The notes below the pieces were generated by a model that was not told the origin of the DNA, did not search any database, and was given only the letters and a program-made list of their open reading frames with translations. 64,000 bases of DNA from Candidatus Nomurabacteria bacterium RIFCSPLOWO2_01_FULL_39_18 (GTDB lineage: Bacteria > Patescibacteriota > Minisyncoccia > Phycocordibacterales > UBA9973), in NCBI GenBank assembly GCA_001787005.1, contig MFUV01000004.1, positions 911-64,910 on the forward strand, given 5' to 3'. Below, piece after piece: positions 6,531-60,317 of the stretch (position 1 is its first letter; each line of letters begins with the position of its first letter). Made by a program: the position numbers and the translations under genes.

Positions 6531-6860
6531 GGGGTAGGTGTTGGATAGCTACTCTATAATGTAAGTTGTAGAGAGGAAAGTCCGAACACAGTTTACCCCG
6601 TATTTATGCGGGGCGAAAAATGAGTAGTGGGTAACGCCCGCATGTAGTGATGCATAGTTGCGAACAGTGACGAACCGATTTAGTTCGGGTGAAACGGCTA
6701 AATACTTACTTCTGTGCAAGATCGTGTCCAGCCCCACTTTTAATAAAGTGGGGCTGGGAGAATCGCTTGAGCCCGAGAGTAATCGAGGGCCTAGACAAAT
6801 TGCTATCGTCCCCGACCTTGGTCGAGGACCACAGAATTCGGCTTATAGACACCTACAACA
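6531..6860 (+). ncRNA. rnpB: RNase P RNA, bacterial type
   Basis: The P4 strands are present: AGAGGAAAGUCCGAACAC at 6572-6589 and ACAGAAUUCGGCUUAUAG at 6831-6848. P1 pairs gtaggtgt (6534-6541) with acacctac (6849-6856). A promoter lies upstream and a terminator downstream. Confidence 0.85.
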
Positions 6861-6871
6861 AAAATGAGAGT

Positions 6872-14696: not shown

Positions 14697-15952
14697 TTTT
14701 TTAAAAACTCCTCCTTAAATTCAAAAAAGTTATCATCTAAGATCGACTGCCTGATTTTTTTCACCAAATTAATAATGAAATATAAATTGTGCGTAGTGGC
14801 GAGGGTGGCGGCTAGCATTTCCTTGCCGTGAAAAAGATGGCAGAGATAAGCGCGAGTAAAACCCCCTGTTGTCCCCCTTGTCAGGGGGACAGGGCCCTCC
14901 TCCCCTGATAAGGGGAGGTCTCGGGAGGGGTTGTTGCACACATAGCACCCACAACCATCCTCAATCGGTTGGAAATCCCCCCGGTACTGGGCATTGGTGA
15001 TATTTATTTTTCCATTCTTGGTATATAGCGTTCCGTTTCTCCCATTGCGTGTCGGCGCGACGCAATCAAAAAGATCCACTCCATTTTCCACCCCCATAAA
15101 CAAATCCTCCGGTTCTCCGATGCCGAGCAAGTGCCGGGGCTTATCTTCTGGCAAAATTTCGTTCACCAGCCTGGTTGTCAGCTCCATGTGTTCCTTGGTA
15201 TAAGAGCCACCAATGCCAAATCCATCAAAAGGCAGACTGGAAATATATTCCGCGGATTTTTTGCGCGAATCTTTTTCCAGGCCGCCCTGCACAATGCCAA
15301 ACAGGGCTTGGGTATCTTTGTTTGGTTTGGATTGGTGATACTCTAGTGAACGCTTCGCCCAAGCATGGGTGCGAGAAAGAGCTTCGTTTTGATATTCATA
15401 ACTTTCATGCGGAGACGTAGCTTCATCAAAAGCAAAGATAATATCCGCGCCCAGGTTGTGCTGGATTTCCATAGATTTCTCCGGAGTGATGTAGTGAAGC
15501 GTTCCGTCTATATGTGAACGAAACGAGACACCGTCATTGCCGATATTGGCAAGCCGAGGCGCGCCATCTTCTGCGCTAGACCGCTCTGGAATTTGAATGG
15601 CAGGTTCGGTTCCTCTAATGACTTTCGAAAAGTCTTTTCCATAAGCCGCACCGAGAGAAAAAACTTGAAAGCCGCCAGAGTCGGTAATGATCGGACCCTC
15701 CCAATTCATAAACTTGTGGAGTCCACCGGCACGAGCCACTAATTCGTCTCCCGGCTGGAGGTAGAGATGGTAAGTGTTGGCAAGCACTACCTCTGCCCCT
15801 AATTCCGCCACCTGTAGGGGCGTGAGCGCCTTAACAGAGGCCTTGGTGGCAACAGGCACAAAGGTCGGAGTATGAATCTCCCCATGCGAGGTTTTCAAAA
15901 CCCCCGCCCTTCCTAAACTATTTTCTAATTTTTTTTCTATCTTGAAATGCAT
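14681..15952 (-). CDS. tgt: Queuine tRNA-ribosyltransferase with a ~21-aa in-frame insertion
   Basis: Motifs DCVAPTRNGRNG, LGIGEPEDL and the zinc site CGCYVCNN...TRAYLCHL. The extra peptide PSRDLPLSGEEGPVPLTRGTTGGF lies between the zinc site and TRAYL. It is encoded by the GC-rich palindromic element at 14861-14932. Confidence 0.9.
   Translation of the reverse strand: MHFKIEKKLENSLGRAGVLKTSHGEIHTPTFVPVATKASVKALTPLQVAELGAEVVLANTYHLYLQPGDELVARAGGLHKFMNWEGPIITDSGGFQVFSLGAAYGKDFSKVIRGTEPAIQIPERSSAEDGAPRLANIGNDGVSFRSHIDGTLHYITPEKSMEIQHNLGADIIFAFDEATSPHESYEYQNEALSRTHAWAKRSLEYHQSKPNKDTQALFGIVQGGLEKDSRKKSAEYISSLPFDGFGIGGSYTKEHMELTTRLVNEILPEDKPRHLLGIGEPEDLFMGVENGVDLFDCVAPTRNGRNGTLYTKNGKINITNAQYRGDFQPIEDGCGCYVCNNPSRDLPLSGEEGPVPLTRGTTGGFTRAYLCHLFHGKEMLAATLATTHNLYFIINLVKKIRQSILDDNFFEFKEEFLKNYNPK
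14861..14932. repeat. GC-rich palindromic element (RPE-like), copy A, in-frame inside tgt
   Basis: Tandem hairpins gtccccc-ttgtca-gggggac and cctcccc-tgataa-ggggagg in an AT-rich gene. Related copies lie at 42357-42449, 53106-53172 and 60176-60212. Confidence 0.5.
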
Positions 15953-17923: not shown

Positions 17924-17967
17924 AATTTTCCAGATAGAGCTTTAGACTCTAGATAGAGTCTAAAGCT

Positions 17968-19215
17968 CTATCTGGTTAGTATTTTTAATAATTCTTCCAG
18001 AGAAACAATTTTCCCTTTTTCTTCTGTGCGCTTTTTCAATTCAATTCCGCCTTCCTTTATACTTCGAGAAGATACAACTGCTCGATAGGGTATGCCAAGC
18101 AAGTCCGCATCGGCAAATTTCTCTCCTGGAGATATTTCTCCCCGATCGTCAAATAAAACCTCAATTTTATTCCTCTTTAAACTTTCATAGACTTTATCGG
18201 CTTCTTTTTCAATCTCTGTATCATCTCCTAGGGCAAGCAGATGGACAGCGAATGGCGCTATGGATTCGGGCCAGATAATGCCCTTATCGTCAGCAAGAAC
18301 CTCTACCACGGTGCCTAAAAGACGCCCCACGCCTATGCCATAACAACCCATCAAAACAATGTGTTTTTCGCCCTTTTCATCCACATATGACAAATCAAAT
18401 GGCTTTGAATATTTTGTTTTTAAATCAAAAATGTTTCCAACTTCAATGGCCTTTTGTTCAATTAGTTTTTCTTTTACTAAACCAAGCTGATTTAGAATTT
18501 CGTCGTTGAAAACTTCTTTATTAAGGGCAGTACCGCTAGCCTCATCAATATAAATAGTATCCTCGCCTAGGGGCGTGATGGTCTGGAATTCATGCGAATA
18601 TTTAGAGAAAGTTCCACCCGAAGCGAAAGCCATGTAAGTCAAATGGCCAATACCGACTCTGGCAAAGATAGTTTTGTAAACTTCTTTCATTTTATTATAG
18701 AATTTTTCGAAATCGTCTTTTGATGTGTGGAAGGAATACATGTCTTTCATGACAAATTCCCTACCCCGAAGTATTCCGGATTTTGCGCGAAGTTCCATTC
18801 TAAATTTATTTTGAATTTGATAAATGGAGAGGGGGAAATCTTTGTGGGAAGAAACATAATTTTTCAAAATAGGAACAACGATCTCCTCGTGAGTAGGACC
18901 CAAGGCAACAACTCTTCCGGAAGAATCAGTAACTTTGTATAAATCATCCATCGATTCCCATCTTCCAGTTTTTTCCCAATTTTCTTTCGGCTGGAAAGAA
19001 GACATTAAAACTTCTTGTCCGCCGACAGCGTTCATTTCTTCCCGAATGATATTTTCTATTTTTCGAAGCGTCCGGAGCCCTAAGGGCAAATAACTATAAA
19101 CCCCTGCCATTTCCTTATGAATAAAACCACCACGAATCAGGAGCTCGGCATTTTTTGATACTTCGTCTGCTGGCGCCTCGCGCCTCGTCTTAGTAAAAAG
19201 TTTTGATTGTCTCAT
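17968..19215 (-). CDS. proS: Prolyl-tRNA synthetase, compact form lacking the INS editing domain
   Basis: N-terminus MRQSKLF...YSYLPLGLRTLRKIENIIREEMNAVGGQEVLM is a class-II ProRS pattern. 415 aa. Confidence 0.85.
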   Translation of the reverse strand: MRQSKLFTKTRREAPADEVSKNAELLIRGGFIHKEMAGVYSYLPLGLRTLRKIENIIREEMNAVGGQEVLMSSFQPKENWEKTGRWESMDDLYKVTDSSGRVVALGPTHEEIVVPILKNYVSSHKDFPLSIYQIQNKFRMELRAKSGILRGREFVMKDMYSFHTSKDDFEKFYNKMKEVYKTIFARVGIGHLTYMAFASGGTFSKYSHEFQTITPLGEDTIYIDEASGTALNKEVFNDEILNQLGLVKEKLIEQKAIEVGNIFDLKTKYSKPFDLSYVDEKGEKHIVLMGCYGIGVGRLLGTVVEVLADDKGIIWPESIAPFAVHLLALGDDTEIEKEADKVYESLKRNKIEVLFDDRGEISPGEKFADADLLGIPYRAVVSSRSIKEGGIELKKRTEEKGKIVSLEELLKILTR

Positions 19216-20021: not shown

Positions 20022-20762
20022 CAAAAAGCAGATATTAAGAAAAAGGACGACACTATAATAGAAAAGATGTTTCGGGCTGGAGCGCACTATGGCTATTCCA
20101 AGAGCCGAAGGCACCCTTCTGTTTCGCCATATATATACGCTACAAAGAACAATGGAGACATAATCGACCTTGAAAAGACAAACATCATGCTAGAAAAAGC
20201 AGTTGATTTTGTGAAGTCTCTGGGTGTCCAAAATAAAGTCATTCTTTTGGTTGGCACAAAGCCCGAAGCCAAAGAGGTTATCAAAAATATGGCGGAATCT
20301 TTGAGTATGCCTTACGTTACTACGCGCTGGATTGGAGGTACCTTAAGTAATTTTACAGAAATAAAAAAGAGAATTACCGAACTCGAAAATTATCGCAAGA
20401 ATACCGCGGAAGGCAAACTCGATAAATACACAAAGAAAGAGCGTGTAGTTATGGCAAAGAAGATGGAGAAACTTTCAAAATATTACTCCGGTCTTATTGG
20501 CTTCAAGAAGGCCCCTGATGCATTATTTATCATTGATGGAAAGGCGGAACATATCGCTACTACCGAAGCAAGAAAAGGAAATATACCTATAATTGCCCTC
20601 TCGAATTCTGACTCAAACATTAAAGGCATAGATTACCCTGTAGTTGCCAACGATTCTGGGATACTTTCTATCAAATTTTTCGCCACGTCTCTCGCAGATG
20701 CCTATAAAGCAGGCCTGTCTGCGCAGGCGGGTCAAAACTCTGCGCCTACAAAAGAAGTCTAA
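20019..20762 (+). CDS. rpsB: 30S ribosomal protein S2
   Basis: S2 family sequence (segment HYGYSKSRRHPSVSPYIYATKNNGDIIDLEKT). Confidence 0.9.
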   Translation: MQKADIKKKDDTIIEKMFRAGAHYGYSKSRRHPSVSPYIYATKNNGDIIDLEKTNIMLEKAVDFVKSLGVQNKVILLVGTKPEAKEVIKNMAESLSMPYVTTRWIGGTLSNFTEIKKRITELENYRKNTAEGKLDKYTKKERVVMAKKMEKLSKYYSGLIGFKKAPDALFIIDGKAEHIATTEARKGNIPIIALSNSDSNIKGIDYPVVANDSGILSIKFFATSLADAYKAGLSAQAGQNSAPTKEV

Positions 20763-41713: not shown

Positions 41714-43723
41714 GTGCAAATGAAAAAACCATCAAACAAATTACAGGGTATTATATCTATTTCCTCTAAGGGCACGGGGTATGTGGCTATCGGAGAAGAG
41801 AAGAATAAAGGGCAGGATCCAGAAATAGACTTCAAGCACCTGAACACTGCCCTCCATGGCGACATGGTGGAGATAATTCTTCATCCGAAGGGCAGAGAGC
41901 GGCAGACTGCTGAAGTTTCAAAAATAATTTCTAGAGCCAAGATGAGCTTCACTGGAGTTTTGGAGCAAGAGCATAAAATGTTTTTTCTGAAACCGGACGA
42001 TACGAAAATGTACACCGACATTTTAATTCCAGAAAAAATGCTCCATGGAGCAAAAGCTGGTCAGAAAGTTTTCGTCGAAATAATTTCTTGGCAAGACCCC
42101 CGCAAAGCACCGGAGGGCAAGGTGGTAAAAGTTTTGGGCCGCCCTGGAGACAACAACGTAGAAATGCACGCCATAGCGATAGAGAAAGGTTTCGACGCAG
42201 AACTTCCGGATAAAGTAGAACTGGAGGCGAAGAAAATAAAACAGAGTGGCATTGGAGAAAAAGATTATGTAGGGCGCCGCGACTTCAGAGGAGTCCTTAC
42301 CTTCACCATTGACCCCTCTGATGCAAAAGATTTCGACGATGCAATATCATTCCGAGTCCTCTCCTCCTTAAATAAGGAGGGGGTTGGGGGTGGTAATGCA
42401 AAGAATCACCACCCCGCCTATGGCACCCCTCCTCAAAAAGGGGGTGAGGTCTACGAGATAGGCATCCATATCGCCGACGTGTCGCACTATGTGAAGGTAG
42501 GAAGCGAGCTCGACCAAGAGGCGCGGGAGCGCGGAACATCAGTCTACCTAGTGGACAGGACGATACCCATGTTACCGGAAATACTTTCAAATGATCTGTG
42601 CTCTCTGGTCCCCCACAAAGACAGGCTCACCATGAGCGCAGTTTTTGTTATAGATAAAAATGCTAGAGTCGTGAATGAATGGTACGGTCGCACGGTTATA
42701 CATTCTAAAAAAAGATTCACTTACGAAGAAGCAGGAGAATCAATTAAAAAACCGAGTGCGCTATTCCATAAAGAATTATCTATTCTAAATAATCTAGCAA
42801 AGAAATTAACCAAGGAGAGGTTTAGGGAGGGCGCCATATCGCTCGACCAGGAGGAAGTCAAATTCGTACTGAATAAAAACGGCACGCCGCTCAAAGTAAT
42901 CAAAAAGGAGCGAGGCGATTCAAACAGACTGATTGAAGAGTTTATGCTTTTAGCGAATAAAAAAGTGGCTAGGGTCCTCTCGCCAAAAGACAAAAGTAAT
43001 AAAGAGGGGGTATCTATCTATCGCGTGCATGATCTGCCCAGCAAGGAAAAGATGATTGACTTGGCGTTTTTCTTGCGAAGTTTGGGGCATAAGGTGTCTC
43101 TGCGAGAAGGTATAATTCCTACGTATGAAATAAATAAATTATTGGAGAGTTTGGCTGGGAAGAATGAAGCCGATACAGTGCATCGAGCCGTAATCAGGTC
43201 TATGGCAAAGGCAATTTATTCTACGAAAAATATCGGGCACTATGGGCTCGCCTTTGCGTACTACACCCATTTCACTTCTCCGATCAGGCGCTATCCAGAC
43301 ATCATGGTGCATAGATTGCTTGCAAACTTTTTAGCTGGCAAAAAGATAGGTAGGGAAAAATTGCACGAGTATGAAAAAATAGCTAGGATTTCTTCTGAAC
43401 AAGAGAAGCGCGCGACAGACGCGGAAAGAGCTTCGATAAAATATAAACAAGTAGAATACATGTCTCTCCGGAAGGGAGAAAAATTCGAAGGAATCATCAG
43501 TGGGATAACCGAGTGGGGCTTGTATGTGGAAGAAATTGAGACAAAATGCGAGGGGATGGTGCGGGTAAAAGATATGACCGATGACTTTTATGTATTTAAT
43601 GAAAAGAAGCTGGAAATGGTCGGACAAAAAAAGAAAAAGAAGTATCGATTCGGCGATCGAGTTCTAATAAAAGTCAAAGGGGTTGATTTAGAACGAAAAA
43701 CAATAGATTATATTTTAATATAA
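41714..43723 (+). CDS. rnr: Ribonuclease R (RNB family) with an in-frame GC-rich insertion
   Basis: RNB motif RRDFRGVLTFTIDPSDAKDFDDA, a cold-shock domain and a C-terminal S1 domain. The extra peptide SSLNKEGVGGGNAKNHHPAYGTPPQKGG is encoded by 42357-42449. Confidence 0.9.
   Translation: MQMKKPSNKLQGIISISSKGTGYVAIGEEKNKGQDPEIDFKHLNTALHGDMVEIILHPKGRERQTAEVSKIISRAKMSFTGVLEQEHKMFFLKPDDTKMYTDILIPEKMLHGAKAGQKVFVEIISWQDPRKAPEGKVVKVLGRPGDNNVEMHAIAIEKGFDAELPDKVELEAKKIKQSGIGEKDYVGRRDFRGVLTFTIDPSDAKDFDDAISFRVLSSLNKEGVGGGNAKNHHPAYGTPPQKGGEVYEIGIHIADVSHYVKVGSELDQEARERGTSVYLVDRTIPMLPEILSNDLCSLVPHKDRLTMSAVFVIDKNARVVNEWYGRTVIHSKKRFTYEEAGESIKKPSALFHKELSILNNLAKKLTKERFREGAISLDQEEVKFVLNKNGTPLKVIKKERGDSNRLIEEFMLLANKKVARVLSPKDKSNKEGVSIYRVHDLPSKEKMIDLAFFLRSLGHKVSLREGIIPTYEINKLLESLAGKNEADTVHRAVIRSMAKAIYSTKNIGHYGLAFAYYTHFTSPIRRYPDIMVHRLLANFLAGKKIGREKLHEYEKIARISSEQEKRATDAERASIKYKQVEYMSLRKGEKFEGIISGITEWGLYVEEIETKCEGMVRVKDMTDDFYVFNEKKLEMVGQKKKKKYRFGDRVLIKVKGVDLERKTIDYILI
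42357..42449. repeat. GC-rich palindromic element (RPE-like), copy B, in-frame in rnr
   Basis: Hairpins ctcctcc-ttaaataa-ggagggg and caccccTcctcaaaaaGggggtg. Confidence 0.5.
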
Positions 43724-45702
43724 TGGAGGATTTAAAAGGAAAAAACTTTTCAAAAATAAAAGCATTCGGCTGGACGATTGTCTCTGTAACTTTGGGTATA
43801 TCGCTCGCGTCTATTGCTTTGTCATTTTTTGAGAATAATATAGATAAAATTTCAAACGAAGGAGGCAGGGCCTTGGCTGTGGAATCTATAATAAAGAATG
43901 AAAAACCTAAATATTTTTATATTAACCAAAATTCCTACGTAGAACCCAAGGTCTCGGCAAAAGCTTACTTGGTTGGCGATTTAAATACCGGTGAAGTAAT
44001 CTTGGCAAAGAATCAAGACCAGAAACTGCCAATCGCTTCAGTATCGAAGCTAATGACCGCGTATGTGGCAAAAGAAATAGTAAAAGGAGACGAAGAAGCC
44101 AAAGCCAGCCAGAGAGCGCTCTTGACCTATGGGGGTAATGGAGGGTTCCGCGTTGGAGAAAAAATAAAAATATCTGATCTTCTCTATCCCCTGCTTTTGG
44201 AGTCTAGCAATGACGCGGCAGAGATAATCGCGGAATATTTCGAACGGGACAGTTTCATCAGAAAGATGAACCAGGAAGCGGAAAATTTGAATATGTCTTC
44301 GACTTTTTTCGAAGACCCAAGTGGGCTCTCCGAAAACAATCAATCCACCCCGGCAGACTTATTTAAATTCACCGGATTTATAAAACAAGCAACGCCAGAA
44401 CTGCTCCAAATCACCACCAAAAGAAATTATTCCACCAAGAAACACAGCTGGCCAAGCACCAACCAATTTTTGCATGATTCCGGATATATGGGCGGTAAAA
44501 GCGGCTACACCGACCCTGCCCTGCAAACTGTCGTTTCTCTTTTCTCCTTGCCCCTTTCAGAATCAAGCACCAGACCTATCGGGATAGTGCTCCTTCGTAG
44601 TTTGGACCGGCGCAAGGATGTGGAAACTATTCTGAAATATTTGAAAAAAAATGTGTATTACGGAGGAGAGGCGGACGCGAGCACCGACTGGGTGAGAGAG
44701 AAGGTCGGGGCGCCCGACATTCGAGAGCCAGATTATGTGACGATGACTTTCGGGGGTGATATAATGCTCGACCGCGGAGTGAAAAATTCAGTGATAAAAA
44801 ATTTCAACAATGACTACTCTGCGCTCTTTGGCGAGCTAGAGATGCTGAAAGATTCAGACATCGTTTTTGCAAACCTAGAGGGCACAGCATCGGACGTGGG
44901 TACTGACATGCACAATTTATATTCTTTCCATATGGACCCGGCTGTCATCCCCGCTCTTTCTGGCGCGGGAATAAATATCTTATCGGTTGCCAACAATCAT
45001 ATGGGGGACTGGGGACGCGCTTCATATGAAGATACTCTCTCTCGTTTACGGGAAAATGAAATATTCTATACAGGAGGAGGAATAAATAGAGAAGAAGCCG
45101 AACGGCCGACCATTATTGAAAAATACGGAATGAAAATAGGATTCTTGGGGTTCTCGGACGTAGGTCCGAACTTCATGAAAGCGGGTGAAGACCAGGCAGG
45201 ATTACTCCTCGCCAGCAATCCACGCTTCGAAGAAATAATAAAAAATGCTTCTTCAAAGGTGGACTATTTAGTGATTTCATTCCATTTCGGTGAAGAGTAT
45301 CAGGCAAAGCATAATACGCGACAGGAAGAATTAGCGCACAAAGCTGTGGACAACGGAGCGAAACTCATCATCGGAAGTCATCCCCATGTAGTGGAAGACA
45401 CTGAAGTTTATATCCCAAAAGATTGCACTCAAAGTTCGTGCGTAGGCTATATCGCCTATTCACTAGGGAACTTTATCTTCGACCAAACATTTAGATCTGA
45501 CACCATGCAAGGCATGCTCCTCAATGTCAGGCTCAGCAATAATGGACAAATGACGGTGAGAAAAGATACGGTAAAATTAAATTCCGCTTTCCAGCCGAAT
45601 CAGATAATCAAAGGCAAAGAGGAGAAAATAAATTTTCAGGAGCATACGGAGGCGAGCATACGGAGGCGTTGCCTCCGTAGTTTCGTAGTTTGCAAGCCTT
45701 AA
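43723..45702 (+). CDS. Fusion of a D-Ala-D-Ala carboxypeptidase (peptidase S11) and a CapA/PGA_cap metallophosphatase
   Basis: N-terminal TM helix. SxxK active site ASVSKLMT in the N-terminal half. Motifs DYVTMTFGGDIMLDRGV and VFANLEG in the C-terminal half. The last ~19 residues are encoded by a REP-like hairpin. Confidence 0.65.
   Translation: MEDLKGKNFSKIKAFGWTIVSVTLGISLASIALSFFENNIDKISNEGGRALAVESIIKNEKPKYFYINQNSYVEPKVSAKAYLVGDLNTGEVILAKNQDQKLPIASVSKLMTAYVAKEIVKGDEEAKASQRALLTYGGNGGFRVGEKIKISDLLYPLLLESSNDAAEIIAEYFERDSFIRKMNQEAENLNMSSTFFEDPSGLSENNQSTPADLFKFTGFIKQATPELLQITTKRNYSTKKHSWPSTNQFLHDSGYMGGKSGYTDPALQTVVSLFSLPLSESSTRPIGIVLLRSLDRRKDVETILKYLKKNVYYGGEADASTDWVREKVGAPDIREPDYVTMTFGGDIMLDRGVKNSVIKNFNNDYSALFGELEMLKDSDIVFANLEGTASDVGTDMHNLYSFHMDPAVIPALSGAGINILSVANNHMGDWGRASYEDTLSRLRENEIFYTGGGINREEAERPTIIEKYGMKIGFLGFSDVGPNFMKAGEDQAGLLLASNPRFEEIIKNASSKVDYLVISFHFGEEYQAKHNTRQEELAHKAVDNGAKLIIGSHPHVVEDTEVYIPKDCTQSSCVGYIAYSLGNFIFDQTFRSDTMQGMLLNVRLSNNGQMTVRKDTVKLNSAFQPNQIIKGKEEKINFQEHTEASIRRRCLRSFVVCKP
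45642..45690. repeat. REP-like hairpin R1
   Basis: Sequence gcatacggaggcgagcatacggaggcgttgcctccgtag. The core palindrome is ACGGAGGCGTTGCCTCCGT, with a tandem half-duplication. Confidence 0.55.
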
Positions 45703-46061
45703 GCGTTTACAGGCAAAGCTACCTCTTCTATATAACTTTCGCAAATTGGAGTAATATGTTCAGAGATCATTGTTGCCCATTCTTCGCTAGAGTATTTTGA
45801 TTGGATCATTTTGAAAAGATCATCAATTTTTTTATCTTCCATCATCTTTGAAGCTTGCTCAGTCTCAGTTGTATTTAATTTTTCCTTTGAAACACCAATG
45901 AGTGTAAGGATAACCACCGCTGAAAAATCCAGATACATTTGATTTATCCCATCTTCGCTCAATCCTCGTTTTTCAAATATTTTTTTAAAAAAATCTTTCA
46001 TAATATTTTTAATATTCAGTCTTTTGATGTAAAATGTTCGACCCTCTCGCGCATTAACCAA
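45699..46061 (-). CDS. Hypothetical protein, possible cargo of the REP-bounded region
   Basis: 120-aa ORF. An alternative start lies at MKDFFKK. Confidence 0.3.
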   Translation of the reverse strand: MVNAREGRTFYIKRLNIKNIMKDFFKKIFEKRGLSEDGINQMYLDFSAVVILTLIGVSKEKLNTTETEQASKMMEDKKIDDLFKMIQSKYSSEEWATMISEHITPICESYIEEVALPVNA

Positions 46062-46743
46062 CTTTTTCTAATTTTTCTTCTCGTTCAAATTTTTCTCTAT
46101 ATGATATCTTTAGTGAAACTAAACGAAGGAACTCTCTTGCTGCTTCCGGATCTTCGTCAAACCTTTCCATCACAGCACTCACGGATCGATCAACAACCGA
46201 TTCATCAAAATTTTCTAACTGGTCCGGTCTGGTCCGGCTAACTTCCTTTCTGGCATCTTTAGTTTCATAATCAGTTCCTTCCTTCTTTACAATCTCCCAT
46301 CTAACACTATTTACAATACCTTTTACTCTTTTCGGTTCTTTCTCGTATCTGTTATTCATTTTTTGAGCCTCTCTACGGTCTTCTTCTTCCCTAATTTCTT
46401 CTTTTTTTTCTGGAGAAACCCCCTTCTTTATGCCAAAACGCATCGCATAATTTGTGCCAACCACAAGAGCCCCTGCTCCAACATAAGCCAGAGATTGTTC
46501 GAAATTTCCTTTTACTGCACTTTCGGCAGACTTTAACAATAAAAGAAAATTTGCCCAGCCGCTAGCTTTCATAATTGCTGTTCCGCCGTACATAAGAGCT
46601 TTGTCCTTAACTCCTTTAAGCCACTTTATATGTCTAGATCTTATCTGCTCGGCAGTTTCAACACTCGCTGTTTGTTCTTTTTTGATTATCGGTTGTGGAG
46701 ACCATTTTTCCATACAGCTTATAATACCCCCCCCCACAACCAT
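46054..46743 (-). CDS. Hypothetical charged protein, possible cargo
   Basis: 229-aa ORF with a Glu/Lys/Arg-rich C-terminal half. Confidence 0.3.
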   Translation of the reverse strand: MVVGGGIISCMEKWSPQPIIKKEQTASVETAEQIRSRHIKWLKGVKDKALMYGGTAIMKASGWANFLLLLKSAESAVKGNFEQSLAYVGAGALVVGTNYAMRFGIKKGVSPEKKEEIREEEDRREAQKMNNRYEKEPKRVKGIVNSVRWEIVKKEGTDYETKDARKEVSRTRPDQLENFDESVVDRSVSAVMERFDEDPEAAREFLRLVSLKISYREKFEREEKLEKVG

Positions 46744-46785: not shown

Positions 46786-46836
46786 TGCCTCTGTGCGACT
46801 ACGGAGGCGCGACTACGGAGGCGTTGCCTCTGTTTA
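46786..46836. repeat. REP-like hairpin R2, upstream of the RAYT gene
   Basis: Sequence ttgcctctgtgcgactacggaggcgcgactacggaggcgttgcctctgt. Confidence 0.55.
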
Positions 46837-46852
46837 TGGTTCGTGCTATATT

Positions 46853-47497: not shown

Positions 47498-47540
47498 ACG
47501 GAAAATTACGGAGGCATTGCCTCTGTATATGCCTCTGTAT
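47498..47540. repeat. REP-like hairpin R3, downstream of the RAYT gene
   Basis: Sequence acggaaaattacggaggcattgcctctgtatatgcctctgtatat. It encodes the C-terminal YTEAYTEAMPP tail of Maf on the opposite strand. Confidence 0.55.
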
Positions 47541-53105: not shown

Positions 53106-53172
53106 ACCTCACCCCCGTCCCCTCTCCTTGTCAAGGAGAGGGGTGCCCAGAGACTTTCTGGGCGGGGTGAGG
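53106..53172. repeat. GC-rich palindromic element, copy C, intergenic and possibly the rpmF terminator
   Basis: Nested hairpins cctcaccccc...gggggtgagg and cccctctcc-ttgtcaa-ggagagggg, followed by a T-tract. Confidence 0.5.
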
Positions 53173-53174
53173 TT

Positions 53175-53801: not shown

Positions 53802-55055
53802 ATGATGAATAATATGAAAAATGAAATGGATGAAAATGACCATAGGGTTATAGGCAAGGAGCTCGACCTCTTTACATTTTCCGAGCTTGTTGGACCTGGT
53901 CTTCCGCTATGGACACCTAGGGGTACTATTTTACGAGAAGAACTAGATAAGTTCGTTTGGCAACTTAGAACAAAGCATGGATACGAAAAAGTAACGATAC
54001 CGCATATTACGAAGCGTGAATTATACGAGATCTCGGGACATTGGGATAAATTTTCTGATGATCTATTTTGCATCACATCCCGCGAAGGAAAAGAATATGC
54101 TTTAAAACCGATGAGTTGCCCTCACCACACACAGATTTTTTCACGCAAACAACATTCATACAGAGAAATGCCACAGCGATATGCAGAAACTACTATGGTT
54201 TATCGTGATGAGCAATCTGGAGAACTCGCGGGCCTGACTCGCGTGTTGTCTATTACACAAGATGATGCTCATGTTTTTTGCAGGCACACTCAAGTCAAAG
54301 AAGAATTTTTTAAAATATGGGATATTGTGGATGATTTTTATCAAGCTTTTGGATTTGAATTGAGCGCGCGCCTTTCATTTCGTGATCCAGGGAATCAAGA
54401 AAAATATTTGGGTACTACAGAAATTTGGGATGAAGCGGAAAACATTCTTCGAAAAATTGCGGAAGAACGCAAAGATAATTATTTCGAGGGGCCTGGTGAA
54501 GCTGCGCTGTATGGTCCGAAATTGGATTTCATGGCTAAAAATTCTGCCGGACGAGAAATGCAAGTAGCCACTATTCAACTGGACATGAATTTACCAGAAA
54601 GATTTGATTTAACTTGTATAAACGAAAAGGGAGAGAAAGAAAGAATCGTGATGATCCATGCGGCAATCATGGGATCAATCGAAAGATTTTTGGCTGTTTT
54701 AATCGAGCACTATGCTGGCGCCTTCCCTCTCTGGCTCTCACCAGTGCAAGTCAAAGTCATTCCCGTGCGCACCAATCACAACGAATACGCAAAAAAGGTT
54801 TTTGAATTATTGAAGGAAAATAATATCCGTGCAGAACTGGATGATGCAGACGAAAACTTGGGCTCAAAAGTCCGCGATGCAAAGACAAATAAAATTCCCT
54901 ATTGGATAGTGGTAGGCGACAAAGAAATAAAAGCCGACAAAATCACTCTCGAATCCCGCCTGCCTGCGCAGGCAGGCGACTCTGGTCAACTCGGCCAAAT
55001 GTCAAAAGAGGAATTAGTGAAGAAACTTTCAGAAGATATAAAGAATAAGAAATAA
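53802..55055 (+). CDS. thrS: Threonyl-tRNA synthetase core lacking the N-terminal TGS/editing domains
   Basis: Segment DHRVIGKELDLFTFSELVGPGLPLWTPRG, a class-II core and a C-terminal anticodon-binding domain. 417 aa. Confidence 0.85.
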   Translation: MMNNMKNEMDENDHRVIGKELDLFTFSELVGPGLPLWTPRGTILREELDKFVWQLRTKHGYEKVTIPHITKRELYEISGHWDKFSDDLFCITSREGKEYALKPMSCPHHTQIFSRKQHSYREMPQRYAETTMVYRDEQSGELAGLTRVLSITQDDAHVFCRHTQVKEEFFKIWDIVDDFYQAFGFELSARLSFRDPGNQEKYLGTTEIWDEAENILRKIAEERKDNYFEGPGEAALYGPKLDFMAKNSAGREMQVATIQLDMNLPERFDLTCINEKGEKERIVMIHAAIMGSIERFLAVLIEHYAGAFPLWLSPVQVKVIPVRTNHNEYAKKVFELLKENNIRAELDDADENLGSKVRDAKTNKIPYWIVVGDKEIKADKITLESRLPAQAGDSGQLGQMSKEELVKKLSEDIKNKK

Positions 55056-58430: not shown

Positions 58431-60317
58431 TTACCTCACTTGCCAAGCTTCATTTCCCTTAATTTTATTAGATATTTTGGCCATAATTTCGTTTATTTCT
58501 GTGTCTGTTAGAGTGCGATTATAAGACTGAAAAACCAGACGAAAGGCGTAAGAAATTTGACTGTCTTTTTTGAACTCGTCGAATAAATCAGGGCCCTTAA
58601 TTAGGAGTTCTCCCGCGTTTTCTTTTATAATTTTTTGAACTTTTGAACTTTCAACTGAAGCGGGCACCCATACAGCAATGTCTCGCGCGATGAATGGGTA
58701 CAATGACCACATTTGAAATTTTTCTGAATAAGAATTTTCTTTAGAAGAGACTTGGGAGCGCGTCGGCGCGAGCACGAGGAATTTTTCAGCAGAAAAATAT
58801 CCGTGCTCTTCTGAAGAAGAATTCTTAGAAAGAAAATCATCTAAACTTGTTTCTATTATTTTTTCTTTTTCATTGTACACAACATGCATTTCTTCTCCAT
58901 TTTTTTTAAACACAGTTCCTATTTCGAAAATTTTAATTTCATTGAAGTCAAGCAATAAAGCATTCAGTTTATTTAATTTTAAACTTTCCTTAAGTCCATC
59001 AGTCAAATTCGTCCTTAAAAATTTCTTGTCTGAAGCACTTTGCATCACCTCCACTTCCCCCTTGTCTTGGAAGACGTATGTCATCACTTCAGAGTAACCC
59101 TCATCTAATAATTTATTTCTGGCGAAAGCTATTTTGGCGTAAGTTTCGTTAACTTTCGGCTTAAAATCTATCTTGGGCATTATCGGCTTTACTCTGTCAT
59201 ACCCTAAAATTCTACCTATCTCTTCCGCCATATCCTCTTCCATAACTAGATCAAGCCGCATCGCTGGCACAGTAATTGTGAACTTGGAGGTCTTGCCTCC
59301 AAGTGGAGGCAAGACCTCCAAGTTGTACTCAATATTGTATCTCTTAAAAATATCTTCTATCTCTTTTGCGGAAACGACTAAGCCTAAAATTTTAGAAATT
59401 TTCTCCGTTGAAAAAGAAAGTTCTCTCTCTTCTTGTTTTTTTGGATAAATATCCACAACATCCTCAAAAATAGCTTCGGGGCACATTTCCGCGATTAGCG
59501 CAGAAAGTTCGCGCATACCGTATTCTGCCATTGTCGGTGACAAATCGTTCTCAAATCTCTTGCGCGCGTCAGTAAAAATGTTTAGGGCTTGGGCGGTTTT
59601 GCGCACGCTAGTCGGATCGAAATTAGCACATTCTAGAATTATATCCGTTGTATCTTTATTCAATTCCGCATATTGCCCCCCTTTTATCCCCGCAATATCC
59701 AGAGAATTTCCAAAATCGTCAGCAATTACCATCATGGTTTCATTCATTATTTTTTCCCCTCCGCCAAGCAGAGTTATCTTTTCCCCTGCTTTAGCATTTC
59801 GTACTTTTAGTTTTAAATCTTTAACTTTTTTCAAATCAAAAACATGCGCTGGTTGGCCGCAATTAAACATTGTGAGGTTTGTGGCATCCACGATATTGTT
59901 TATGCTTCTCTGCCCGATTGATTCTAAATGCTTCACTACCCATTCTGGCGATGGGCCAATTTTAATATTCCTGACGACTCTGCCCATGTATCGGCGGCAG
60001 TTTGGACTTTCAATTGTTTTTACTAACTTCGTCGGCTTGGATTCTGGAATTTTGTATTTAGGCGTTGGGTCAATATATGAAATATTTAAAAGTGAGGCAA
60101 GCTCGCGGGCTATACCTTGATGGGAAAGCAGGTCATGCGCGCGGTTTGGTAAAATTTTTATATCAAAAATAAAATCACCACCCCCAGCCCCCTCCTCCAC
60201 AAGGAGGGGAGTTACACTTTCTACCTCCGCAACATGGTAAGTTATAATATCCGCCAGTTTTTCTGCAGAAGGAACATCGGGTATATACCATTTAAGCCAA
60301 TTGTAGGAAATTAGCAT
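58431..60317 (-). CDS. pheT: Phenylalanyl-tRNA synthetase beta subunit, compact, with two in-frame repeat insertions
   Basis: B3/4 domain, B5 domain and a C-terminal FDX-ACB-like domain. 628 aa. The N-terminal insertion VTPLLVEEGAGGGDF comes from GC-rich element D. The insertion EEHGYFSAEKFLVLA comes from the AT-type hairpin at 58770-58808. Confidence 0.85.
   Translation of the reverse strand: MLISYNWLKWYIPDVPSAEKLADIITYHVAEVESVTPLLVEEGAGGGDFIFDIKILPNRAHDLLSHQGIARELASLLNISYIDPTPKYKIPESKPTKLVKTIESPNCRRYMGRVVRNIKIGPSPEWVVKHLESIGQRSINNIVDATNLTMFNCGQPAHVFDLKKVKDLKLKVRNAKAGEKITLLGGGEKIMNETMMVIADDFGNSLDIAGIKGGQYAELNKDTTDIILECANFDPTSVRKTAQALNIFTDARKRFENDLSPTMAEYGMRELSALIAEMCPEAIFEDVVDIYPKKQEERELSFSTEKISKILGLVVSAKEIEDIFKRYNIEYNLEVLPPLGGKTSKFTITVPAMRLDLVMEEDMAEEIGRILGYDRVKPIMPKIDFKPKVNETYAKIAFARNKLLDEGYSEVMTYVFQDKGEVEVMQSASDKKFLRTNLTDGLKESLKLNKLNALLLDFNEIKIFEIGTVFKKNGEEMHVVYNEKEKIIETSLDDFLSKNSSSEEHGYFSAEKFLVLAPTRSQVSSKENSYSEKFQMWSLYPFIARDIAVWVPASVESSKVQKIIKENAGELLIKGPDLFDEFKKDSQISYAFRLVFQSYNRTLTDTEINEIMAKISNKIKGNEAWQVR
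58770..58808. repeat. AT-type hairpin element, copy 2, in-frame in pheT
   Basis: The sequence gagcacgaggaatttttcagcagaaaaatatccgtgctc closely matches 16007-16045. Confidence 0.5.
60176..60212. repeat. GC-rich palindromic element, copy D, in-frame near the pheT N-terminus
   Basis: Hairpin cccctcctcc-acaa-ggaggggag. Confidence 0.45.

Follow-up and report, generated by a model that had tools for sequence, protein, structure and literature searches.

MITEs of bacteria (miniature inverted-repeat transposable elements), such as Correia, ERIC, BOX and RUP, are small and non-autonomous, carry terminal inverted repeats and are sometimes intragenic, usually with a target-site duplication and a recognisable parent insertion sequence (IS). 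Double-hairpin elements (DHEs) are found in the mitochondria of Allomyces. The GC clusters of fungal mitochondria are GC-rich mobile elements in AT-rich, compact genomes, some of which lie in coding regions and some of which are bypassed (PMC4478555). Repetitive extragenic palindromic (REP) elements and REPINs (REP doublets forming hairpins) are mobilised as single-stranded hairpins by REP-associated tyrosine transposases (RAYTs) of the HUH/Y1 type; REPINs lie outside genes, are specific to a species and are passed on vertically, whilst a GTAG stands beside the hairpin of REPs (PMC3116915, PMC3337134). The Rickettsia palindromic elements (RPEs; Ogata et al. 2000, cited after PMC10969869) are families (RPE-1 to RPE-10) of palindromic non-coding repeats of ~100-150 bp, which lie in frame in unrelated housekeeping genes of Rickettsia and are apparently translated. 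The G. bemidjiensis genome report mentions a multicopy family that lies inside genes, in all frames and without frameshifts (PMC2996986; cf. PMC2700814). Here we analyse GC-rich palindromic elements in a 64 kb stretch of DNA (the window) from a Rifle groundwater metagenome-assembled genome (MAG; contig MFTP01000002.1 of GCA_001785325.1) of Candidatus Nomurabacteria RIFCSPLOWO2_01_FULL_39_18, a member of the Candidate Phyla Radiation (CPR; Patescibacteria): three loci lie within the housekeeping genes tgt, rnr and pheT, whilst the fourth is intergenic. A preliminary description of this DNA, which took the genome to be ~38% GC (the window has 40.1%, computed over the 64 kb), had proposed a selfish repeat family after the pattern of the RPEs. 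We consider it probable, at roughly 78%, that all four loci belong to a REP/REPIN-like, non-autonomous family of palindromic mobile DNA.

Comparison with these systems places the architecture of the elements closer to REP/REPIN than to RPEs. The likeness to RPEs lies in palindromes that a reduced genome carries in frame within housekeeping genes, where they are apparently read through and compatible with folding of the protein; the differences lie in the 36-nt units (doublets of 69-100 nt), the high GC content and the presence in several phyla and in phages, whereas RPEs are confined to Rickettsia, a distinction drawn from their description; nothing suggests a relationship in sequence. The RPE pattern holds for the in-frame position in housekeeping genes, but by size, host and architecture the elements are not RPEs. 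With REPINs they share hairpin units with a conserved 5' flank, the occurrence as singlets and as spaced inverted doublets, the lack of a target-site duplication and a RAYT-like gene in the same window; unlike REPINs, the window elements have no GTAG, are intragenic at three of the four loci and are near-identical across phyla. Mitochondrial GC clusters and DHEs are likewise GC-rich double hairpins of AT-rich, compact genomes, but are organellar, unrelated in sequence and in part bypassed rather than translated. Terminal inverted repeats are shared with MITEs, but neither a target-site duplication nor, in the loci searched, a parent IS was found. For comparison with palindrome-associated elements derived from IS200/IS605, which have subterminal hairpins at both ends, no target-site duplication and a fixed short target beside the insertion, the family displays hairpins, no such duplication and invariant AA..TT flanks, and a limited search linked no TnpA to the copies. 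The multicopy family of G. bemidjiensis may be the same as that of the window, since Geobacter MAGs carry the tgt-type element (PMC2996986, PMC2700814). Literature searches returned nothing relevant on the hairpin sequence, on MITEs in Patescibacteria or on palindromic insertions in CPR: in-frame palindromic mobile DNA is already known, whilst for this element family and its occurrence in CPR no prior description was found in the searchable literature.

Four loci of the window form one family of hairpin units

Two covariance models were used for the analysis of the window (Table 1): R1, derived from 44 full tgt-type copies (alignment A2), and R2, a model of the 35-nt half unit that was built solely from sequences outside the window and run with filters off. 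With R1, the rnr and pheT loci were the next best matches after the tgt and intergenic copies, in both cases as half-element matches. With R2 over the 64 kb, no match with E<1 was obtained beyond the four loci; since R2 recovers those and nothing else at this level, they are exactly the family members of the window. This bears out the relationship claimed in the preliminary description, whose quoted sequences are all present at the coordinates it gave. The motif CCCCTC-N4-14-GAGGGG occurs twice in the window against 0.01 expected occurrences, and all copies fold strongly, beating shuffled controls with z-scores of -3.1 to -9.1. GC-rich 24-nt windows by themselves, in contrast, failed to pick out the elements in a GC scan of the window. 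No Rfam family matched the elements at gathering threshold; this covered the window together with 9 loci that bear elements, and the only matches in the window were RNase P RNA and two tRNAs.

Table 1. Element copies, their host genes and the transposase gene of the window
Feature	Position (nt)	Strand	Evidence
tgt, queuine tRNA-ribosyltransferase, 423 aa	14681-15952	-	Pfam TGT E=1.6e-134; PDB alignment; orthologue alignment A1
tgt element, full-length inverted doublet	14860-14932	-	R1, R2, fold, empty allele in L008
rnr, RNase R, 669 aa	41714-43723	+	Pfam RNB E=7e-104, CSD2, S1; PDB alignment
rnr singlet unit 1	42359-42394	-	R2 E=2.7e-3; near-identical lone singlet in orthologue L279
rnr singlet unit 2, degenerate, inverted	42411-42450	+	R2 E=1, marginal
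RAYT-like Y1/HUH transposase gene, 212 aa	46853-47491	+	Pfam Y1_Tnp; NCBIfam REP_Tyr_transpos
Intergenic doublet-like copy, rpmF-nusB	53107-53174	+	R1 E=5e-4; R2 E=7e-3; fold z=-9.1
pheT, phenylalanyl-tRNA synthetase (PheRS) beta subunit, 628 aa, B2 domain absent	58431-60317	-	Pfam B3_4, B5, FDX-ACB; PDB alignment
pheT singlet unit	60177-60212	+	R2 E=1.3e-3; fold z=-3.1

The unit of the family has ~36 nt and consists of a C-rich terminus (AACCCCTCC or ACCACCCCC), a linker of 2-3 nt and a hairpin of 7-8 bp, the latter of the pyrimidine/purine type CCTCCCC/GGGGAGG with a loop of the type TTRTCA. Singlets are found in pheT and in each half of the rnr copy, whilst tgt and the rpmF-nusB spacer carry inverted doublets with a short spacer; the full element has the layout AACCCCTCCC-RR-CCTCCCC-TTRTCA-GGGGAGG-AG-[5-40 nt]-CT-CTCCCCC-TGAYAA-GGGGGAG-NTNG-AGGGGGTT and terminal inverted repeats (AACCCCTCC...GGAGGGGGTT). 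The rnr and pheT singlets represent one subfamily, with the same orientation, the same reading frame, the layout CCTCCTT-loop-AAGGAGGGGG-YT-GGGGGTGGT and the peptide P-L-L-x-E-E-G-x-G-G-G. Stems are nearly invariant across phyla (alignment A2). In 19 of the 25 distinct half-unit types, with ~6 covarying stem variants, the terminal C-run exactly mirrors the 5' arm of the hairpin (alignments A2 and A3): examples are CCCCTCC/CCTCCCC, CCCCCTC/CTCCCCC, CCCCCCT/TCCCCCC, CCCCCTT/TTCCCCC and CCCCCTGT/TGTCCCCC. Such an arrangement would be expected of an intramolecular triplex, in which a pyrimidine third strand runs parallel to the purine arm; the ACCACCCCC subfamily, where A takes the mirrored T positions, does not follow the triplex code. 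The mirror rule may be one of structure or of recognition.

Copies within tgt, rnr and pheT

The open reading frames (ORFs) of tgt, rnr and pheT run through the GC-rich segment without a single stop codon or frameshift, and every in-gene copy that we inspected is in frame and free of stops; the in-frame position in three housekeeping genes, now assigned by Pfam, is thus upheld. Junction peptides predicted from the open frames include CNNPSRDLPLSGEEGPVPLTR and VLSSLNKEGVGGGNAK. Solved homologues and many close orthologues lack all three inserts, with empty sites in Tgt of P0001, RNase R of P0124 and PheT of P0241, as expected for the lineage-specific insertions that had been proposed.

The tgt copy is an inverted doublet with a REPIN-like layout, which reads in coding orientation AACCCCTCCC-GAGA-[CCTCCCC TTATCA GGGGAGG]-AGGGCCCTG-[TCCCCC TGACAA GGGGGA]-CAACA-GGGGGTT. 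It is matched by R1 with 77.6 bits (E=5e-19) and by R2 in both halves (14896-14930, minus strand, E=3e-8; 14859-14893, plus strand, E=1e-7), and its DNA folds with -22.1 kcal/mol (z=-3.25). The 69-nt core (CCCC..GGGGG) encodes the peptide PSRDLPLSGEEGPVPLTRGTTGG of 23 aa, so that the in-frame addition at the zinc site stands, although its size had been given as ~21 aa; against solved homologues, the alignment places ~22 added residues in the stretch from the CxCxxC zinc motif to RAY. The baseline length of Tgt in Nomurabacteria is ~398 aa, and the site is empty in the nearest orthologue (P0001, 92% identical) and in at least nine further close orthologues. The empty allele in L008 reads CQN/YTRAY (DNA TGC CAA AAT / TAC ACT; the slash marks the site), and deletion of the 69-nt core from the window gene yields CNN/FTRAY of canonical length. 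Since 14 independent contigs encode an identical Tgt, the insert is not an artefact of assembly. AlphaFold models it as an unstructured loop (pLDDT 30-37 at residues ~341-366), in line with the surface loop that had been suggested, but this is weak evidence because the whole zinc subdomain is poorly modelled.

Further Tgt orthologues show that inserts recur. The SPDAFAQSLGPSLRSATPSQKH type of insert occupies site 1 in P0002 and site 2 in P0026, and two copies of the SSDFFSLRTAKPNSSLEK type are present in P0066. Between the window and L006, a Nomurabacteria contig from Hainich groundwater, the tgt element is identical at 64 of 69 nt (93%), in contrast to 66% for the DNA of the host gene and 72-78% for the adjoining 150 nt. 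In case of P0106, virtually identical 23-24 residues are found at the same site in a protein that is only 67% identical: the preliminary description had named shared peptides in unrelated lineages as the mark of an ancestral loop, and formally this is one such instance. However, the P0106 insert does not point to an ancestral loop, because closer relatives lack it and the element is far better conserved than its host gene. Tgt of the window is also a sharp mosaic when compared with P0001, with amino acid identities of 98-100% over residues 1-300 and of 68-70% over residues 301-423; the breakpoint near residue 300 lies immediately upstream of the insert, and the mosaic therefore points to homologous recombination between diverged Nomurabacteria alleles.

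Three side observations concern the same gene. A second extra segment of ~30 residues (Tgt residues ~103-137; 15541-15646), modelled with low confidence and without a hairpin element, is not present in Z. mobilis or other solved TGTs and is kept in all Nomurabacteria orthologues. In some Tgt orthologues, a GGCAAGACC palindrome, related to the second pheT palindrome described below, yields RQDLKGVQGLAL inserts. Finally, positions 879-2980 of L006 hold a ~404-bp tandem duplication with an element-bounded tgt 3' fragment, which is either an element-mediated rearrangement or an assembly artefact.

RNase R of the window is 100% identical to that of Cand. Nomurabacteria RIFCSPLOWO2_01_FULL_39_18. 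The rnr copy, an older one in a state of decay, consists of two singlets side by side. Unit 1 reads ACCACCCCC-AA-CCCCCTCCTT ATTT AAGGAGGAGAG on the minus strand (LSSLNKEGVGGG on the plus strand) and is identical at 35 of 36 nt to the singlet of L279, whilst the inverted unit 2 (ACCCCGCC..CACCCCTCCTCAAAAAGGGGGTGAGG) encodes ..HHPAYGTPPQKGG; together they form a 93-nt composite (42357-42450) that folds with -24.6 kcal/mol (z=-4.1). Relative to solved homologues, a stretch of ~26 added residues separates DDA(I/V) from Y(E/K)(I/L)G(I/V)HIADV in RNase R. Among the 120 closest orthologues the site is empty in about half, for example in P0124 (82% identical; SFQEV-GKEEYEVG), whilst the remainder hold at least seven unrelated insert types in this one loop. 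Unit 1 occurs alone in P0129, P0168 and P0179, and unit 2 alone in orthologues such as P0157. The insert is common to relatives that are 78-89% identical and diverges among them: hairpin quality is lost, the frame is kept and relatives differ by whole-codon indels. Older copies such as this one are probably translated, because the frame is kept and indels comprise whole codons in spite of the decay of the hairpin.

The pheT unit reads ACCACCCCC-AG-CCCCCTCCT CCACA AGGAGGGG AGT on the plus strand and TPLLVEEGAGGG on the minus strand. PheRS beta of the window organism and all 120 closest orthologues are devoid of the B2 (EMAP/OB) domain, and the singlet sits exactly at the B1/B3 junction that the missing B2 has left. 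B2 is missing throughout the Nomurabacteria, whose baseline at this position is VESV-EKxxDG-D, and the site is empty in the nearest relative, P0241 (74% identical), whilst the insert TPLL(V/S)EEG(A/V)GGG recurs in scattered PheT lineages, one of them at only 65% identity. In the empty allele of L277, GAGAAAAAAGATGGT takes the place of the insert; the 36 nt of the unit replace 15 nt of this allele, so that the net gain of residues amounts to only ~7 aa. As a separate observation, pheT contains a second palindrome at 59281-59324, a perfect 20-bp stem (AACTTGGAGGTCTTGCCTCC AAGT GGAGGCAAGACCTCCAAGTT, z=-10) whose in-frame translation is NLEVLPPLGGKTSKF; at this position, most orthologues are without an insert, and others carry different palindromic inserts (NLVVGVPLGTPTTKF, SPPDKGDVGG).

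An intergenic copy between rpmF and nusB

The fourth copy lies in the space between the stop codon of rpmF (53175) and the start of the nusB-NUDIX gene (53080). An outer stem, ACCTCACCCC/GGGGTGAGGT, encloses two hairpins, R1 matches the copy over its full length, and the fold reaches -30.6 kcal/mol. The intergenic position was thus described correctly; a role as a terminator, which had also been suggested, is rejected, as a terminator scan called none at this copy. The sole T-run lies on the strand opposite to that of the flanking genes.

Distribution and mobility of the family

When GTDB species representatives were scanned for exact matches to the left hairpin of the tgt element (20 nt, CCTCCCCTTRTCAGGGGAGG), at least 120 stretches were returned, most of which extend to the full element, and at least 58 full tgt-type copies are present in GTDB genomes of several phyla. 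Carriers within CPR belong to Nomurabacteria, Saccharibacteria, Peribacteria, Doudnabacteria and Gracilibacteria, and those outside to Gallionellaceae, Sideroxydans, Nitrosomonadales, Geobacter, Desulfuromonadales, Thiothrix, Zoogloea, Omnitrophota and Zixibacteria; some copies lie on contigs that are hundreds of kb long, and full copies were also found in viral (phage) contigs of IMG/VR. For the ACCACCCCCARCCCCCTCCT singlet of the ACCACCCCC subfamily, at least 136 matches to metagenome contigs were obtained, with contig GC ranging from 0.33 to 0.71; in high-GC genomes many singlets resemble hairpin-plus-T-run terminators. The reading as a mobile family put forward in the preliminary description is supported, but its placement in Patescibacteria is too narrow, given the copies in Proteobacteria, Desulfuromonadales, Omnitrophota and phage contigs.

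Additional in-gene copies in CPR were found in uvrC (L009), at a second tgt site (L006) and in ORFs of L073 and L012, and further CPR contigs also carry intergenic copies; on the 6.6-kb contig L006, six full copies lie within 3 kb. The same loops hold many palindromic insert types in Nomurabacteria orthologues, and types recur at different sites. Presence and absence among close relatives, the same types at different sites and the spread across phyla all suggest, at the level of sequence comparison, that the elements are mobile.

A different element shares the 20-nt hairpin in Clostridia MAGs from rumen and gut (L048, L053, L056, L063, L074, L107, L113 and L116) and in the phage contigs L130, L132, L138, L144 and L151: it has the layout CCTCCCCTTGTCAGGGGAGGTGG-[variable hairpin]-CGGAGGGGTAGTC and contains GTAG.

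Target site and candidate mobilising enzyme

None of the 57 copies with sufficient flank shows a direct target-site duplication. The flanks of tgt-type doublets are invariably AA..TT, and AAT/TAC is present at the empty tgt site; together with the (G/A)AATT contexts of singlets, this hints at a target resembling AATT. The (G/A)AATT sequence very often precedes ACCACCCCC singlets in low-GC, CPR-like metagenome contigs (L162, L171, L182, L185, L186, L195, L212, L223, L224 and L229).

Since the architecture of the elements is that of REP/REPIN, which are moved by HUH/Y1 (RAYT) enzymes, an enzyme of the HUH type acting in trans is the most likely class of mobiliser, by analogy to these systems. 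The RAYT-like gene of the window encodes the HUH motif NHFHVLV and matches Y1_Tnp with E=1.4e-7 (32.1 bits, the curated cut-off being 23), whilst the match to REP_Tyr_transpos (E=1.2e-7) remains under the cut-off of that model. On either side of the gene lies a hairpin of another kind, TACGGAGGC-RTT-GCCTCYGTA(G), copies of which lie at 45643-45685, 46796-46840 and 47505-47540 and bear the REP hallmark GTAG (..CCGTAG); because these hairpins belong to a different family, the gene represents only a candidate class of mobiliser for our elements. In its own right, a RAYT-like gene with REP-like hairpins represents the classic REP-RAYT layout in a CPR genome. One TACGGAGGC hairpin forms the C-terminal ~20 codons of the ORF at 43723-45702, and the unannotated minus-strand ORFs 45699-46061 and 46054-46743 lie between such hairpins.

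Two other candidates were considered and rejected. ORFs beside singlets in L046 and L047, taken as possible transposases of a parent element, turned out to encode pilins and a restriction-modification system. Integron attC sites, considered on account of the AAC...GTT ends and the proteobacterial hosts, were dismissed because complementarity of the flanks beyond AA/TT is only weakly enriched (at least 5 nt in 8 of 57 copies, with ~2.3 expected) and because the copies are dispersed and intragenic.

Origin of the inserts

We propose that copies would land throughout the genome without target-site duplication, mobilised in trans as single-stranded hairpin DNA by a HUH/Y1 enzyme (RAYT or IS200-type) and possibly carried horizontally by phages. 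Within the genes of this gene-dense genome, they would persist only if their length is a multiple of 3 nt, the frame free of stops and the site a tolerant surface loop, and survivors would be transcribed and translated as loops of 12-28 aa rich in Pro, Gly and charged residues. An occupied loop would then become a hot spot in which further elements nest or replace one another, and homologous recombination between diverged alleles may additionally shuffle gene segments that bear elements. Several observations weigh against this proposal. We infer the translation of the inserts solely from the open frame. No transposition event was seen directly, and boundaries and target site are uncertain without a near-isogenic pair of filled and empty sites; both singlet alleles resemble the outcome of an insertion together with the loss of a few nucleotides. 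The RAYT-like gene of the window is flanked by the other hairpin (TACGGAGGC..GCCTCCGTAG), and the elements have no GTAG of the classical REP kind. When 1.9 Mb of element-bearing loci were searched by tblastn with an approximate IS608 TnpA and with the RAYT-like protein, no convincing match was obtained, the best one (E=0.003) being weak, Y1-transposase-like and in the Clostridia locus L116; within the limits of this search, neither a linked transposase nor a parent autonomous IS with the same ends was seen. Comparison of core lengths modulo 3 between copies in ORFs and intergenic proteobacterial copies was uninformative, as boundaries are accurate to ±1-2 nt and GC-rich stop-free runs are unreliable. 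Finally, occupancy of the same site in diverged lineages could in part reflect recombination, as the Tgt mosaic supports.

This last point leads to the alternative that the copies arrived by homologous recombination or gene conversion from carrier alleles, with one ancient insertion per site. The mosaic of Tgt, with its breakpoint just upstream of the insert, and the filling of the same site in lineages that are 65-70% identical speak for such a route; however, the flanks of the tgt element are only 72-78% identical to L006 where the element reaches 93%, and the presence of one type in different genes, in intergenic DNA and in other phyla is left unexplained, so that as a full account we judge it quite unlikely. 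Recombination would account for one way in which elements spread rather than for what they are. Slightly easier to entertain, but still unlikely, is that the elements are modules of benefit to the host, i.e. RNA-stabilising hairpins or hairpins for intercistronic processing, regulators that sequester Shine-Dalgarno/anti-Shine-Dalgarno sequences or non-B DNA signals (triplex, i-motif, G-quadruplex): the very strong conservation across phyla with almost invariant stems, the mirror rule, arms that contain GGAGG and CCTCC, the terminator-like high-GC singlets and the position of the intergenic copy directly after the rpmF stop codon would all suit a function. Such modules do not account for copies in coding loops of essential enzymes or for the variable presence among close relatives, the terminator scan of the intergenic copy was negative and no consistent position relative to genes was seen; moreover, function and mobility are compatible with each other.

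It is highly improbable that the inserts are simply lineage-specific protein loops under selection at the protein level, in which Pro/Gly-rich coding gives rise to the GC-rich hairpin incidentally, without any mobile DNA. The same loop positions do vary in length across many orthologues, and the rnr insert is held in common by diverging relatives, but the same DNA element is intergenic at rpmF-nusB, lies in unrelated genes, in both orientations, in other phyla and in phages, its sites are empty in the closest relatives and its DNA is better conserved than the gene around it (93% against 66%). No more credible is that the inserts remain untranslated, being cut from the mRNA or bypassed by the ribosome in the manner of the 'byp' elements of yeast mitochondria: whilst the hairpins are strong enough to stall ribosomes, all in-gene copies inspected are in frame and free of stops, and decayed copies such as that of rnr keep the frame with whole-codon indels, which is the pattern of read-through.

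Implications for CPR genomes

Genomes of CPR bacteria are among the smallest and most streamlined, and yet essential genes (tgt, rnr and pheT, as well as uvrC in a relative) carry selfish palindromes, with every permissive loop that was examined being a hot spot for many insert families. As mobile palindromic DNA, the elements would represent a so far undescribed source of variation in protein length, and of noise in alignment and annotation, in these lineages, and they amount to a natural test of where conserved enzymes accept about 12-30 extra residues in their loops. Near-identity of a 70-nt non-coding element across phyla is unusual because REP-like repeats are supposed to be lineage-specific; it points to a widespread mobilising activity or to spread by phages. 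Further, the elements could mark DNA exchange in groundwater communities: if this is true, near-identical copies in groundwater CPR, Gallionellaceae and Geobacter would reflect recent exchange, possibly between episymbiont and host. The broadest version, a pan-bacterial, phage-borne family of ~36-nt hairpins with a novel mechanism of mobilisation, perhaps through recognition of non-B DNA such as a triplex, as the C-rich terminus that mirrors a hairpin arm would suggest, and which acts as a general generator of surface loops in essential CPR proteins and records recent exchange of groundwater DNA, is speculative, and we regard it as rather doubtful.

Other hairpins in the window

Hairpins of other kinds are also present in the window. 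RNase P RNA (bacterial class A) was identified at 6533-6861 with 102 bits, barely over the gathering score, and the strong hairpin at 6728-6757 is a part of this RNA and no repeat element. A palindrome with a perfect 21-bp stem at 17930-17975 (z=-10.2) covers the last codons and stop of hisS as well as the region upstream of mreB, and shows no relation in sequence to the other families. At 54957-54978 and 20708-20733 a hairpin of the form CCTGC(C)TGCGCAGGCAGG occurs in frame near the C-termini of two proteins, where it is read as RLPAQAGD (an aminoacyl-tRNA synthetase) and KAGLSAQAGQ (ribosomal protein S2), respectively; an LPAQAGG insert is found in PheT of another Nomurabacteria (P0275) as well, and these hairpins probably represent a further insert family.

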